Of a stretch of 64,000 bases of DNA, positions 4,271-63,824 are shown piece after piece (the stretch's first letter is position 1; each line of letters starts with the position of its first letter). Below the pieces are notes generated by a model, which was given only the letters and a program-made list of their open reading frames with translations, was not told where the DNA came from and searched no databases. The position numbers and the translations under genes are program-made. The DNA comes from a virus: positions 32,001 through 96,000 of IMG/VR virus record IMGVR_UViG_3300035698_016128; one strand, 5' to 3'.

Positions 4271-4302
4271 AAAAAGGTGGGGAGGCCCGTTAAGGCCTCC
4301 CC
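4271..4302 (-). terminator. Rho-independent terminator after tail tube gene
   Basis: GGGGAGGCC-CGTTAA-GGCCTCCCC 9-bp stem, followed on the minus strand by a T-tract. Confidence 0.75.
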
Positions 4303-8689: not shown

Positions 8690-8709
8690 GGGGGGCCGTT
8701 AAGCCCCCC
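8690..8709 (-). terminator. GC-rich hairpin downstream of major capsid gene (terminator/stabiliser)
   Basis: GGGGGGC-CGTTAA-GCCCCCC; no clear T-tract. Confidence 0.45.
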
Positions 8710-8732
8710 CAATCCATAGCACCTCCACGCCG

Positions 8733-34426: not shown

Positions 34427-35400
34427 GTTTATCTATTTGTTGTTTATCTATTTGTTGTTTATCTGATCGCTGTGCTGTTTATGGTTGGTTATTGGGCTTT
34501 CCTTATTATGTACCACTTATGCCCTGAAAAGCCAAGGGGATGGGGAAATAATTCATTTGTTTGATTTTGAGGGGCTGAACAGGCTGGCAGGCTAGAAAGG
34601 GGCTAATGGGGTATATGAGGGCTTTGTGGGTATATATAATGATATGCGTGTGAGTGGGTGTTGAGTAAGTGTTGAATGAGTGGGAATGAGTGTGAGTGAG
34701 TGTGAATTGGTGTGAGTGAGTGTGAGTGGGGGTTGATGCGGGTATGAGGGTGTGCGGGGATTCGTCCCAAGTGACGGTTAAATGGGACAAATAGGTATGA
34801 ACCCGCCATGTTTGCCGAATTGAACTCGCATAGTGTTTATTATTCGTCCGATATGGCTACAGGTGGGGATAAATGGGGTATCTACTCGTATATACGTAAA
34901 AATGGGATGGGGTTTTTTTGGGAGGGGCAGGTTTTGTTTCAATGTGAGACCTTCGAGTGGTCTATAGGAGTTTCGTAGCGGGTTCGAGTGGTTTCGTAGC
35001 GGGTTCGAGTGGGGCAGTACAACAAGTTGTGTTTTGGTAGATCGTATACAACTTATTGTACAGAGTTACAAAACTCGGGGACGTAGGAAAATGGGGACCC
35101 CCGACACGTGGTTACGTTTTTGTAACATATGCGTATATATTTGTAACAAGTTTTCGGCAGTATTCGCACGCGGTTTTCGCATGCAAGAATTGCAATACGA
35201 AATATGTACCCACGTGCGAAAAACGTAATACGAAACCGTACCAGTACGAAAACGTAACAACATGACAGAAACGTAATCACATTACGAAAGCGTAACAACG
35301 TGACGAAAACGTAACAAGGCAGGCAGGGTGACAGCAGGCAGGCAGGGTGACAGCAGGCAGGCAGGGTGACAGCAGGCAGGCAGGGTGACAGCAGGCAGGC
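34427..35400. repeat. Non-coding low-complexity/tandem-repeat region at strand switch
   Basis: 15-bp unit x2.5 (34427-34464), GAGTGT-like run (~34645-34730), 21-bp unit x2 (34970-35011), degenerate ACGAAAACGTAAC run (~35216-35316) and 19-bp AGGCAGGCAGGGTGACAGC x4.4 (35317-35400). Confidence 0.9.
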
Positions 35401-35567
35401 AAAAAAACCCAAGTGACGAAAAACGGCGTTTCGGTGACGTATTACGTCACTTTCTTGCCTATTTTCAGGGTGCCATATTGACAGAAAAAAAGCTTGAAAA
35501 AAAACTTTCGCCTACAAGTTATTGTATTCATTACATAAAAAAAAACTTTGTACAATTTCTTGTATGT

Positions 35568-35583
35568 TGGCACACGGCATGCA
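35568..35583 (+). promoter_or_regulatory. sigma54-type -24/-12 promoter
   Basis: TGGCACACGGCATGCA: GG-N10-GC spacing; upstream of the island operon. Confidence 0.65.
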
Positions 35584-35798
35584 ATGCATAGGGTTGATTC
35601 GAACACAGCGTCACGCCAGCCCCAACTAAGTAAATGGCGAAACACAAGGCACCCGAAAGTCAAGGGTGAAAGGCAAGAAGAAAGCCTGCCGAAATAGGAA
35701 ACCGCCCTTAAGGGTGCCACTTAAAATGCGTTTCCAAAAAATTCTAGTTTTTGGCTTTGCAAGCCGTTTCCGTTTTCCTTCAGAAAGGTAGGTGCCAT

Positions 35799-36254
35799 AT
35801 GGCGAAAGCCAAAAAGCGCTTCCTGTCAATGAAGGAAATGATGTATTTTCATTTCCTTGCTATTGCAACGGCAGGGGAAAGCACCCTGAAAGCTGGGGCG
35901 CTTCTGAAGGCCTATCACGGGGGGAAAGAAACTTCCCGTGAGGTTGGCAATGTGACCGGCGAATTGTTCGCACCTGCTATCATGCTTCGGCACCTTGAAA
36001 GCTTCGGCACAGTTTCAAGCGCAGAAGCGAATGACGGCACAATCATTCGCCTGTTTGACGGCTTCGGCAAAGAAAGCTTCCGGGTTTTCTTTTCCAAGCG
36101 GGGAAAATGGGCGGGCCGCTATGGTGTTTCTGGCGCAGTGAAAAGCGCTATGGAAAACGCCCTGCCTGATTGTTCCTTTGACTGGGAACAGCAGGGCACA
36201 AAAAATTACTTCTTCTCAGGGAACAATGAAGCGCTTCTGCGCTTCGCACCCTGA
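35799..36254 (+). CDS. Hypothetical protein, paralog of 38053-38559
   Basis: AAGGTAGG RBS before ATG 35799; shares the AYHGGK, NDGT, SKRGKW and KNY(F/Y)FSGN motifs with its paralog. Confidence 0.85.
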   Translation: MAKAKKRFLSMKEMMYFHFLAIATAGESTLKAGALLKAYHGGKETSREVGNVTGELFAPAIMLRHLESFGTVSSAEANDGTIIRLFDGFGKESFRVFFSKRGKWAGRYGVSGAVKSAMENALPDCSFDWEQQGTKNYFFSGNNEALLRFAP

Positions 36255-36323
36255 CAGGCAGTAATCAACCGGGAAACGGAAACGGCTTGCAAAACCCAAA
36301 ACTAGAACAAGAAAGGGGAAACC

Positions 36324-37461
36324 ATGGAAATTTTTCTTTTTGGCTGTTTTTGGTTTAGCCTGTTTTGCAGTTTCGTCATTCTTTGCATCATGCTCAGCAA
36401 CAAGTGGTAGTAGGGGGAAACCATGTTAGAAAGCTTGCACCTTCAGTTTTTCACATTGTTCGTTGATGCTGAAGCGCTTCTGTTTTGGAAAAGGGCGTTT
36501 CAGGCTTCGGAAAGCATAACCGGGGAAAACTGGTTTGTTTTCTGAGAAAACCGGGGGGAAGGAAACTTCCCCCCCTACAATTTCTTGTAAAGGGGAAACC
36601 ATGATTTTAGGCTTCTACTTGATTGCCAACAGGCCGGTTTTCTTGATGCTCACAAACGTGGGGGAAGTTGATCAACTGTTCCAGAAAACAATATGGCTTC
36701 AGTTTGTTTGAAGCCGTCAACCGGGGGGAAGGAAACTTCCCCCCCCAGAAAGGGGAAAAAATGGAATACGAACACCCAAAAATGAGGAACAAGTTTTTTA
36801 AGTTTCTTGGTGACAGCGTGCTTGAACCACTTTTCTACAAGCTTGGCTTGTGGTACGGCTGTGATGACTGTGATGACTGCGTGAACCACTGGGTTTACAA
36901 GGTTTCCGGTTGCAAGGTGTGCACGCAAAGGAAGTGTGGCAAAATTCTTGACGCAGTGATTTGGAAGTAGGTCAACCGGGGGGAAGGAAACTTCCCCCCA
37001 AGCTTTTACAACTTCTTGCAGAAAGGAAACTGATATGACACTTGGCAAGGCAAAAAAGCCGAACGGGAAAATGTGTGCAAGGGTAGTTTCGAACGGCTTG
37101 GGTGTTGAAATAGAAGTTGGCTTGCAGAAGGCAGAAAGTGACACACTCATGGCAGTTGGCACCATTCGCCCCAAGTACAAGAATGAAGAAGCGGGCGCGT
37201 TTTTCATGACCATGCTGAAAGAATACGCTGAGGCGCACGGCATTGAATTTGATGTACAGCAATGGGAAGAATAGTCAACCGTCAACCGGGGGGAAGGAAA
37301 CTTCCCCCCAGAAAGGGGAAAGTATGAGAAAGCCTTTCAGCGCAGTACACATTTGTAACAGGTGCAAGCGCAAAGTAGTAATCATCAAACGGCACAAAGC
37401 GCTTCCGCTTCCTTACTGCTACATGTGTGGCAAGTGTTTCAAGAAGGAATACGGCACGTGA
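36324..37461 (+). other. Micro-gene array: 36324-36410 (28 aa, hydrophobic), 36423-36545 (40 aa), 36601-36711 (36 aa), 36761-36970 (69 aa, Cys-rich), 37035-37274 (79 aa), 37324-37461 (45 aa, CxxC...CxxC)
   Basis: Each is preceded by a purine-rich RBS (mostly AGGGGAAA; AAAGGAAA at 37035) and all are co-oriented; translated manually. Confidence 0.7.
36549..37309 (+). repeat. Four copies of an intergenic hairpin (GTC)AACC-GGGGGGAAG-GAAA-CTTCCCCCC
   Basis: Copies at 36549-36574, 36716-36744, 36971-36999 and 37281-37309; perfect 9-bp stem with a GAAA loop. Confidence 0.95.
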
Positions 37462-37551
37462 ACGGCTTTGAAGGGGGAAGGCGGGTGCAAGCCTGCTTTC
37501 CCCTTTTAACACGCTCAAACAGGCGCACAGGCGCACGCACGTGGAAGGAAC

Positions 37552-37594
37552 GGGGAAGGGGAAGCCAAGCGCTTTCCTTTCCCCCCTTTTTTTT
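37552..37594 (+). terminator. Rho-independent terminator closing the island operon
   Basis: GGGGAAGGGGAAGC...GCTTTCCTTTCCCC stem followed by T8. Confidence 0.8.
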
Positions 37595-38052
37595 GTGCCA
37601 AGCAGGGCGTGCGTGACCGCCATACGACCCCGATATCTGTTTAAGCGCCGGTGGATCCTTTGATTTGTGGATCACTACGTGACGACCCCTCGTAGGTTAA
37701 GCGCTGGTGGATCCTTTGAAGTACCAAAGCACTCTCAATCAATCGCTGAGGAATAGACCTATACCTGTGCCTATACGTAGACGTGGAAGAACCGGAAGGG
37801 TCGGGAAATATAAGCGAGTAGGAGGCGAGCGAGTTGATCGTACTCCCCACAGAGTCGAACCCCTTCGCCTACCCGATATCCCTGGAACCCTATCGGTTAC
37901 GAAAAGAGTTACTAACCCCCGAGCAGGGAGAAGACCTCCACCCCTCCCCGGTCCACGAGCGGTGGATCCTTTGGCCTTTCCAAAAGGAACCCCCTATCCA
38001 ACCATAAGCCGGAGTAGGGGGTTCGTACTACACGATATTCGGTACTACCGGA

Positions 38053-38559
38053 CTACGCGCCTAAGTAGCGCATGAGAGCTGCGGTATTCCCGGAGAAGTA
38101 GTAGTTCTTACTTTCGGACTGACGTACCCAACCGAACTCATCGTTGGTATTGACCGCTTCAATCTGCGTGCGTGCCTTACCCGACACACCGAACTGCCCC
38201 GACCATTTGCCCCTTTTCGACAGGAAGAACCGGAATGCTTCGGACCCGCAGTTATCAAAGACGCGAACCACCGTACCATCGTTGCATTCCGCTTCCGTGA
38301 ACCTGAGATCAGCAGCGCTCATGACCGACGCCACAATGGCGCTTCCGAGGAGTTTGCCAGTAGGACCGTCAACTGCCCTTTCGGTATCCTTCCCACCGTG
38401 GTACGCGGAGTTGAACATTCTGGCGGTCACATCCTCCGGGGTCATTTCCGGGATGACCGGCGCTTCGGGTTCAACGATGGGTTCCACCGGGGCGATGATG
38501 ACTTCTTCCGCCTTCGGGGATACTGCCTTCTTCCGCCTGATCGTTTTCTTGGTTCCCAT
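38053..38559 (-). CDS. Hypothetical protein, paralog of 35799-36254
   Basis: GGAG RBS before ATG 38559 (MGTKKTIRRKK...); aligned by eye with 35799-36254. Confidence 0.85.
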   Translation of the reverse strand: MGTKKTIRRKKAVSPKAEEVIIAPVEPIVEPEAPVIPEMTPEDVTARMFNSAYHGGKDTERAVDGPTGKLLGSAIVASVMSAADLRFTEAECNDGTVVRVFDNCGSEAFRFFLSKRGKWSGQFGVSGKARTQIEAVNTNDEFGWVRQSESKNYYFSGNTAALMRYLGA

Positions 38560-38622
38560 TTTGAATCTCCTTTCAGAAGGGTTTTGAGTCCCACCACACC
38601 ACGTGGTGGTACCCGTATATAC

Positions 38623-38638
38623 TGCAAGTCGCGTGCCT
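38623..38638 (-). promoter_or_regulatory. sigma54-type promoter
   Basis: AGGCACGCGACTTGCA, ~65 nt upstream of ATG 38559. Confidence 0.7.
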
Positions 38639-39026
38639 AACAAGGGCATCGGAAATAAAAAAAAAAGGTGGTCGTTTCAGGTACTTACAACTCCGCCCAA
38701 AACCGTCGTTCAACGAGTGGGTAAAATAGTGCCGTTTTTGGGCTCTTTGGTGACAATTTGCGCCGGAGTACCAAGAGTTACGATATCGTACTCGTATAGT
38801 TACAAGAGTGTAACTGGTTACATTATCGTACTCGGCAGTTACAGGAGCGTAACAGGATATCCCAGTTACAAAAACGTAACTAGAGTTACATAATCGTAAC
38901 AGGATGTCCCCCGAGGCAGGTTGCTCCTGGTGGATCCTTTGGATATCGGGACGACGAAGATATCCCCAAGGTGGGAATATAGCTGTGGATCAGTTAAGAT
39001 CTACCGACTCACACAATCATCTTATC

Positions 39027-63182: not shown

Positions 63183-63824
63183 ATGAAAAAGTATGAAGAC
63201 TTCATTGCCTTAGCAACACCGATAATAAGACAAGAGGCAAGGCGGTTCAGCAAACGAATTCAAAGTCATGATGTTGAAGATCTTGAGCAAGAAATAAAGT
63301 TTAAGATTTGGCGAAGTTTTGACACCATTGATTTGGATAAATATCCCCCAAAGGCTGTTGCGAGAAATATCGCTGTGCAGACGTGCTTGCGAATATACGG
63401 ACGTAAGCCGAAGGAAATTGGCAGTATCAAATTGGAAGAGAACTTTTGGGGGACAAGTGGTTTTGCCAGCATCGAAGTAAGACACTTATCAGATAAACCA
63501 CATGCGGATGCCGTCATACGGGAAGAGGACTTTACCTGCACGGCAGGTACAGCGGAAGTCGAAGTCTGTGACCTACTGGCTACGCTGTCACCACAACTAA
63601 GCGATGTAGCGCATACCGTTCTACGCATCCGGCTTGATCCCCCGCAGGGTTTGATTTCAAAGGCATGCCGTGGTATGCTTGAAACTAAGAAGACCAGCAG
63701 GGACAGGTCTACCTTTCGCATAACAAATAAAATGTTCAGCGACTACCTTGGCCTAACAAGGTACCGCTATGCTGTTGCTCTTGAAGAGATAAGAGAAAAG
63801 CTTGGGGCGCTAGGAGAATTGTGA
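63183..63824 (+). CDS. Sigma70 region-2-like protein (phage sigma factor/regulator)
   Basis: PIIRQEARRF...DVEDLEQEIKFKIWRSF resembles ECF sigma region 2. Confidence 0.6.
   Translation: MKKYEDFIALATPIIRQEARRFSKRIQSHDVEDLEQEIKFKIWRSFDTIDLDKYPPKAVARNIAVQTCLRIYGRKPKEIGSIKLEENFWGTSGFASIEVRHLSDKPHADAVIREEDFTCTAGTAEVEVCDLLATLSPQLSDVAHTVLRIRLDPPQGLISKACRGMLETKKTSRDRSTFRITNKMFSDYLGLTRYRYAVALEEIREKLGALGEL

Follow-up and report, generated by a model that had tools for sequence, protein, structure and literature searches.

Why should a phage place one and the same small hairpin between neighbouring genes that show no kinship to one another? The question is raised by a string of very short open reading frames (ORFs) in a viral DNA of 64,000 nucleotides (nt), hereafter called the window, which corresponds to bases 32001-96000 of the 124-kb IMG/VR virus record IMGVR_UViG_3300035698_016128 (CheckV completeness 75%). 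An initial annotation, made from the letters of the window, had described six ORFs there and a repeated hairpin with a GAAA loop, for which it proposed roles in RNA processing or stabilisation, in single-stranded DNA signalling or in recombination. Our main finding is that this array represents a known type of phage intergenic module in a local variant, and no new kind of system. The explanation that we favour, tentatively and at somewhat less than an even chance, is that the hairpins work at the RNA level as intercistronic decay barriers and insulators, and were copied locally as micro-genes were added. Repeated junction modules between ORFans offer one of the rare views of the way in which phages assemble, express and trade their early genes for host takeover. 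The present locus is a compact case without junction promoters, in which a sigma54-type promoter, a stalk, four hairpins, private ribosome-binding sites (RBSs) and two terminators stand together.

The micro-ORFs, the junction hairpins and two palindromes that accompany them are arranged as follows.

36324..36410, + strand: micro-ORF of 28 amino acids (aa), hydrophobic; RBS AAAGGGGAAACC then ATG, in-frame codon score positive
36423..36545, + strand: 40-aa micro-ORF; supported by codon score, annotated as a gene on near-identical ENA contigs
36549..36574, + strand: junction hairpin 1 (AACC, 9-bp stem, GAAA loop), 7 nt past the stop codon
36576..36589, + strand: palindrome TACAATTTCTTGTA, the same as the copy at 35551 that adjoins a promoter
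36601..36711, + strand: 36-aa micro-ORF; supported by the ORF list, its RBS, codon score and ENA contigs
36716..36744, + strand: junction hairpin 2 (GTCAACC and hairpin), 11 nt past the stop codon; RBS 2 nt further on
36761..36970, + strand: 69-aa micro-ORF, Cys-rich; supported by the ORF list and codon score
36971..36999, + strand: junction hairpin 3 (GTCAACC and hairpin), 7 nt past the stop codon
37007..37020, + strand: variant palindrome TACAACTTCTTGCA, from inverted-repeat and pattern searches
37035..37274, + strand: 79-aa micro-ORF; highest codon score of the six, present on three near-identical ENA contigs
37274..37309, + strand: junction hairpin 4 (GTCAACC twice and hairpin); RBS directly after
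37324..37461, + strand: 45-aa micro-ORF with CxxC...CxxC zinc-ribbon-like motifs; weak sub-threshold zinc-ribbon matches

All six ORFs are present at the sizes first described (28, 40, 36, 69, 79 and 45 aa), each with an ATG 2-5 nt past a G-rich RBS. The junctions, described as (GTC)AACC followed by a hairpin after a stop codon and before an RBS, proved to be exact copies. The 22-nt core GGGGGGAAG-GAAA-CTTCCCCCC starts at 36553, 36723, 36978 and 37288 on the + strand, and with the preceding AACC it makes four identical 26-mers (36549-36574, 36719-36744, 36974-36999 and 37284-37309). No further copy was found in the window at up to three mismatches (expectation 0 in 100 shuffles), nor in the remainder of the 124-kb record. 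AACC precedes all four hairpins and GTCAACC three of them, junction 1 having only AAACC; the duplication of GTCAACC noted earlier is a tandem one, at 37274-37288, and belongs to junction 4. The hairpins start 7, 11, 7 and 13 nt past the stop codons of the 40-, 36-, 69- and 79-aa ORFs, and within 0-26 nt each is followed by AGAAAGGGGAAA, which at junction 3 reads AGAAAGGAAA, with an ATG after it. The segments that separate the cores, of 148, 233 and 288 nt, each carry an RBS-led ORF. The junctions fall into two subtypes, long and short, which alternate along the array beginning with a long one: between hairpin and RBS, junctions 1 and 3 have the additional palindrome TACAA-N4-TTGYA, and junctions 2 and 4 have 45 nt in common (43 identical, one gap). 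A partial copy, AACCGGGG, lies at 36518.

The stem consists of 9 bp of G-run/C-run pairing closed by a GAAA tetraloop, with a predicted RNA folding energy of -18.8 to -20 kcal/mol, and the hairpins are retained in both the minimum free energy (MFE) and the centroid structures of the whole 1.3-kb operon RNA; a search of Rfam gave only two sub-threshold chance matches. The statement that the hairpins lack T-tracts holds for junctions 2 and 4, where no T run follows the stem, and has to be softened for junctions 1 and 3, where T-rich stretches occur that are short and set apart from the stem. In folds without the 5' arm, pairing between the 3' arm and the RBS that follows is predicted at junctions 1, 2 and 4, with energies of -8 to -12 kcal/mol, so that a hairpin, once formed, also keeps the RBS free.

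The six ORFs are probably real ORFan micro-genes, and their translation is suggested by their codon usage and by a cluster-specific RBS at a fitting distance from the start. With a codon model trained on 45 long ORFs, the in-frame score was positive for every one of them and each time exceeded those of the other two sense frames, although the two lowest-scoring ORFs are ambiguous against the antisense strand. In one ENA strain the 69-aa ORF carries an in-frame deletion of 9 nt (36859-36867), and the deleted piece is one unit of a 9-nt tandem repeat (CTGTGATGA, a CDD repeat) of which the window sequence has 2.3 copies and that strain one fewer. Neither the six peptides nor the 151-aa product of the gene upstream had a significant match in Pfam or PHROG, where only sub-threshold matches of zinc-ribbon type appeared. 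Among 5.8 billion clusters, no homologues of the 79-aa and 69-aa products were found beyond these products themselves, and a structure-atlas search with the 79-aa protein was uninformative. No kinship was detected among the six peptides. Since the micro-ORFs are mutually unrelated, it is the junctions, and not whole cassettes, that have been copied or conserved. An antisense ORF of 211 aa that overlaps the array (36650-37285) was dismissed, as it has a weak codon score and a TTG start.

Does the same hairpin exist elsewhere, and if so in what position? The metagenome search that the initial annotation had recommended gave a divided answer. The exact 26-mer has no match in viral, metagenome or genome contig collections (the last covering 185,579 species), and the 22-mer matches 11 unrelated metagenome contigs, each once. 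The 20-nt core is found once each in 31 unrelated IMG/VR contigs, which represent 14 distinct contexts. In 12 of these 14, a sense-strand ORF (57-497 aa) ends with its stop codon 6-28 nt before the core; downstream there is mostly an AGGAG RBS with an ATG, and a T-tract in only about three. A post-stop location with the GAAA loop on the sense strand in 12 of 14 contexts argues that this geometry arose repeatedly as a post-stop element. Moreover, the same phage has T-less G-run/C-run hairpins after its major capsid gene (8690-8710, minus strand) and after a minor tail gene (4279-4302).

The array belongs to a longer putative transcription unit, whose other features are these.

35568..35583, + strand: sigma54-type promoter (TGGCAC-N5-ATGCA) at the operon head, from a pattern match
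35742..35778, + strand: 5' arm of a 37-nt inverted repeat, 92% complementary to the 3' arm
35799..36254, + strand: first gene, 151 aa, of an uncharacterised family, with a paralogue at 38053-38649 (-)
35916..35940, + strand: in-gene hairpin variant (CACGGGGGG-AAAGAAA-CUUCCCGUG) that encodes HGGKETSR; 18/19 nt identity to the core
36271..36307, + strand: 3' arm of the same inverted repeat, with TCAACC (36265) just before it
37468..37594, + strand: two canonical intrinsic terminators with T-tracts at the operon end; fold -76 kcal/mol, z = -5.8, the second listed by the terminator scan

The promoter pattern is over-represented: TGGCA-N6-7-TGCA has 8 matches in the window versus 1.5 expected, seven of them intergenic and heading small-gene operons between 35.5 and 49.6 kb. 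The corresponding sigma54-type sites (TGGCAY-N5-TTGCA) lie at 35568, 43795, 44115, 45684, 46088, 47522 and 49580. At the junctions, no sigma70-like or sigma54-type site was found, a sigma70-type scan giving 4 sites versus 3.6 expected. No gene for a sigma54 activator was found in the 124 kb of the record. A distant relative (L040) has two TTGGCATACTTTGTGCA sites.

Around the first gene and its RBS, the 37-nt inverted repeat forms a stem that is present in the MFE and centroid folds of 35700-36340 (z = -10.4). The partial TCAACCGGG noted earlier at 36265 is no decayed hairpin but the start of the 3' arm of this repeat. In the predicted fold the 37-bp stalk has the size of an RNase III substrate, which makes RNA processing plausible in the operon. 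Inside the first gene is a fifth, variant copy of the hairpin core (35919-35937, 18/19 nt), which codes for the GGKETS conserved in the protein family; the DNA of the paralogue has no hairpin at the equivalent site.

At the far end, the terminators have 4-8 T directly next to the stem. Since the operon ends in real T-tract terminators, the host polymerase uses the canonical type, and the T-less stems inside the operon are a different device. The intrinsic-terminator class does not fit them: the terminator scan omits all four + strand hairpins, and at junctions 2 and 4 no T follows the stem.

From the post-stop position of the junction hairpins, the cores in other phages, the phage's own T-less hairpins and the RNase III-like stalk, we infer that the array hairpins serve as barriers to 3' decay and as translational insulators, a role that position and analogy make conceivable. 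One polycistronic early transcript would start at the sigma54-type promoter at 35568 and stop at the terminators at 37468-37594. Each stem would block 3'-to-5' exonucleases, so that after a cut downstream the upstream micro-cistron would keep a protected 3' end. The stem would also hold its C-rich 3' arm paired, leaving the G-rich RBS of the next micro-gene unsequestered, and every tiny ORF would be translated independently. The identical copies would have come from one junction module, composed of AACC, the hairpin, the optional palindrome, AGAAAGGGGAAA and ATG, that duplication or homologous recombination spread within the locus while unrelated micro-genes joined. RNA processing or stabilisation is the best supported of the roles first proposed, though only indirectly, by the post-stop sense-strand position and the parallels in other phages. 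A 9-bp stem falls short of the length that a classical RNase III site requires, and separate transcripts for each peptide are at most conjectural.

Functionally, the nearest known systems are those in which a stem-loop protects the cistron before it. In the repetitive extragenic palindromic (REP) sequences of E. coli operons such as malE-malF and in the hairpins of the puf operon, a T-less stem-loop after a cistron blocks 3' exonucleases and sets segmental mRNA stability, and in the early operon of T7 a polycistronic transcript of small genes is cut at intercistronic RNase III stem-loops that leave protective 3' hairpins. The array differs from both. REPs are host-wide families of hundreds of copies with a REP-associated tyrosine transposase (RAYT), whereas the array has four copies at one locus, its 26-mer is absent from the 185,579 species genomes, and no PF01797 (Y1) match was found in the 124 kb; on the same grounds it is neither a REP/RAYT nor an IS200/IS605 hairpin element. 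The RNase III sites of T7 have irregular stems of about 20 bp or longer (about two helical turns), whereas the junction stems have 9 bp and no conserved extension, only the 37-bp stalk of the first gene being of RNase III-like size.

Architecturally, the nearest relative is the promoter early stem-loop (PeSL) of T4-type phages, which includes a strong sigma70-type early promoter, is present in about 50 copies per genome (Arbiol et al. 2010, PMC2839356; Comeau et al. 2014, PMC4122927), and mediates ORFan shuffling and the formation of mini-circles (PMC2839356). Both have the order stop codon, GGGG...CCCC stem-loop, RBS and ATG between small ORFans in an early plastic region, with an identity sufficient for recombination. 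The array differs in having no promoter at its junctions and four copies at a single locus. Neither cassette differences nor recombination products were seen among strains at least 99% identical and in run contigs, in which rare forms are hidden. A looser likeness is offered by the start-associated sequences (SAS) and extended SAS (ESAS) of Cluster K mycobacteriophages, an asymmetric RBS-containing motif 3-7 nt before the ATGs of non-structural genes, often after an inverted repeat (Pope et al. 2011, PMC3203893). The SAS is phage-specific and thought to be related to translation; it occurs in 11-19 copies over half of the genome, with 17-bp imperfect inverted repeats that have little support as RNA hairpins (PMC3203893). 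Its 13-bp GGGATAGGAGCCC-type motif is unrelated in sequence to the array, which has a perfect 9-bp tetraloop hairpin and is local, so that the likeness is architectural only.

Several observations sit badly with an RNA-level barrier. Identical copies permit no covariation, and a decay barrier needs neither identity over 26 of 26 nt nor a conserved single-stranded (GTC)AACC; both features point to sequence-specific recognition or to a very recent spread. The pairing of the 3' arm with the RBS is missing at junction 3. The near-copy of the core in the first gene, the partial copy at 36518 and the 45 nt shared by junctions 2 and 4 are left unexplained by a barrier. The palindrome of junctions 1 and 3 also stands at two promoters in untranscribed DNA, which implies control at the DNA level. 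Finally, in reporter assays similar poly-G/poly-C stems from T4-type PeSLs had the effect of strong terminators (PMC2839356), and attenuation may therefore be what happens here.

The first rival to decay barriers follows from this last point: each hairpin would be a T-less attenuator that stops some of the polymerases, so that expression would fall stepwise along the array, possibly relieved by a phage antiterminator. The stems are of terminator grade (9 bp, GC-rich, GNRA loop), T-rich stretches lie a few nt downstream at junctions 1 and 3, and GGGG...CCCC PeSL stem-loops cut reporter expression as a strong terminator does (PMC2839356). We nevertheless regard attenuation as unlikely, as T is missing after the stems of junctions 2 and 4, unlike at the terminators of the operon end with their 4-8 adjacent T, and as four terminators in series, without internal promoters, would almost silence the last genes.

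A second alternative to the favoured decay barriers makes the junctions promoterless PeSL-like linkers, whose 26-45 nt of identity would serve the recombination system of the phage for excising, inserting or swapping micro-gene cassettes, for example through mini-circles. The closest kin of the phage are three ENA contigs, 99.0-99.8% identical, in which all four hairpins and all cassettes recur. Contigs from four salt-lake runs are exact matches across the array and reveal no alternative joints, although they break at the repeats, as assemblers do. The initial annotation had proposed recombination joints, which the 26-45 nt of identity flanking unrelated ORFs and the 7-nt duplication allow; neither alternative joints nor a site-specific recombinase were found to go with them. 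It had also asked how gene content between the hairpins varies, and the content is the same in all relatives, a comparison that covers strains at least 99% identical. Unrelated ORFans between identical junctions, the alternation of junction subtypes with the 45 nt common to junctions 2 and 4, the doubled GTCAACC of junction 4, the partial copies at 36518 and in the first gene, the recombination-type exonucleases that the phage encodes and the documented precedent of PeSLs are all in keeping with such linkers. The constancy of cassettes in the three ENA contigs and in the contigs of the four runs speaks weakly to the contrary, the run data being contigs, in which ends and rare variants are invisible. 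Added to this, no other viral, metagenome or genome contig record has the exact 26-mer, and the 124 kb yielded neither a tyrosine recombinase nor a Y1 transposase. Taken together, we judge linkers improbable.

A third possibility, to which we also give a small chance, is that a protein recognises the junctions by sequence, either as an RNA operator before each RBS, for an early translational shut-off, or as a DNA roadblock or stoperator-like set. Structure alone would not call for 26 identical nt that take in the single-stranded AACC, a near-copy occurs in the first gene, and at junctions 2 and 4 the stem ends at most 2 nt before the RBS. The palindrome adds to the case. TACAA-N4-TTGTA occurs 5 times in the 124 kb (35047, 35513, 35551, 36576 and 46056) versus 0.2 expected; one copy adjoins the 35568 promoter, and about 30 nt separate another from the 46088 promoter downstream of it. 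The copy at 35551 is upstream of the transcription start and must therefore act in DNA. The palindrome is probably the operator of a candidate regulator, as judged from its placement, and its presence at junctions 1 and 3 as well as at the 35568 and 46088 promoters suggests a DNA-binding regulator within the operon. Variants of it lie at 37007 and 45999. For the hairpins themselves, however, no candidate binder was found, the product of the first gene having no recognisable fold or family; the sites are only four, all inside one 760-nt stretch, and the same core is a generic post-stop hairpin in unrelated phages.

The array also lies within a feature that is more surprising than the hairpins. 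From 35102 to 37625 (2523 nt), there is not a single VGAB/VTCB tetramer ([ACG]GA[CGT] / [ACG]TC[CGT], nine strand-symmetric classes) on either strand, whereas about 135 are expected, and the next-largest gap of this kind in the 124 kb is 225 nt. No tetramer outside this set falls to zero in the island, which is sharp-edged and takes in the promoter region, the first gene, all of the array and the terminators. The paralogue at 38053-38649 (-), outside the island, does not obey the ban, and just beyond the right edge GGTGGATCCTTTG, rich in words banned in the island, occurs twice at 37650-37720. In relatives identified by their terminase, the gaps free of the motif lie in AT-rich or low-complexity DNA and are no counterpart of the 2.5-kb island. 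The ban accounts for part of the anatomy of the junctions: as GGAG is banned, a canonical AGGAG RBS is impossible in the island, hence the GGGG-type RBSs and the hairpin arms restricted to GAA/TTC. Indeed, four of the five occurrences of the RBS word AAAGGGGAAA in the genome precede micro-ORFs, AAGGAG being used elsewhere, and the junction RBS motif AGAAAGGGGAAA likewise has four of its five genome copies in the array. The identity of the four hairpins is left unexplained by the ban. Such a deficit suggests that the DNA or the transcripts of the island must escape a nuclease or a modification enzyme; one idea is that a nuclease or DNA-modification motif is avoided in the segment that is expressed first. 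A bolder reading combines this with the linkers: the hairpin-RBS module would be a promoterless linker for both recombination and recognition, with which the lineage could swap its first-expressed micro-genes in a leading or protected early island purged of the tetramers. The logic would resemble that of T5, with its site-free first-step-transfer DNA, and the stems would also be specific sites through which a phage factor times expression. We consider this distinctly unlikely.

That the hairpins are functionless leftovers of serial local duplication or gene conversion from the GGKETS segment of the first gene, tolerated in spacers, appears very unlikely: the core does match 18/19 nt of 35919-35937 and its copies are limited to one locus, yet the post-stop position, the orientation and the pairing with an RBS module are regular at all four junctions, and direct repeats 170-310 nt apart should be deleted unless selected, whereas all sampled strains keep four, a persistence that argues mildly for selection of the cassettes.

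Other known classes of repeated elements were considered, and CRISPR arrays and integron cassettes do not fit. A CRISPR array has regular non-coding spacers of 25-40 nt, with cas genes or a leader, whereas the 148-, 233- and 288-nt segments here carry RBS-led ORFs. Integron attC sites are imperfect, 57-141 nt long, built on an RYYYAAC...GTTRRRY core and accompanied by an integron integrase; no inverse core site follows the hairpins, and a search of the 124 kb, 75% complete, detected no tyrosine recombinase. Hairpin promoters of N4 type, which would require a phage-encoded single-subunit RNA polymerase, appear unlikely: no PF00940 match was found in the same 124 kb, in a search whose control matched in no genome. 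A role in stimulating recoding or read-through was dismissed, as the next ORFs use different frames and the gain from read-through would be a mere 14-20 residues.

The DNA is present in salt-lake metagenome runs of 2017-2018, and the phage is uncultured. From position 1 to about 34400, the window encodes on the minus strand the portal, large terminase, major head protein, head protease and tail genes. All cultured relatives are distant, the top terminase matches being 27-33% identical; the relatives found through the terminase are 37-53% identical and have no repeated hairpins. Searches with the 151-aa protein and with a 198-aa protein gave no relatives in IMG/VR or INPHARED.

The product of the first gene is 46% identical over 114 aa to that of the convergent paralogue at 38053-38649 (-). 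Its family has the motif AYHGGKET...SKRGKW...KNYxFS and is small: HMMER retrieved from 1.8 billion proteins (E<=0.001) only ten representatives, one of which is the phage's own paralogue. The AlphaFold2 model of the 151-aa protein (predicted local distance difference test, pLDDT, 78) had no Foldseek match in the PDB at E<=0.001, and a search of the Atlas gave only weak YjbR-like hints.

Further afield, a 213-aa ORF at 63183-63824 (+) matches sigma70 region 2 just below the Pfam cut-off (22.6 versus 24 bits) and may, on this resemblance, be a phage sigma factor. Outside the window, a gene of thymidylate-synthase fold (L067, G000:C1:111576-112292; PF00303, E = 1.6e-19) lies within an open frame of 398 aa; a TGT/DpdA gene was not found. 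The divergent intergenic region at 34427-35401 is dense in tandem repeats with units of 15, 10, 21 and 19 nt, and of its 19-nt unit, AGGCAGGCAGGGTGACAGC, there are 4.5 copies, two of which are lost in one strain.

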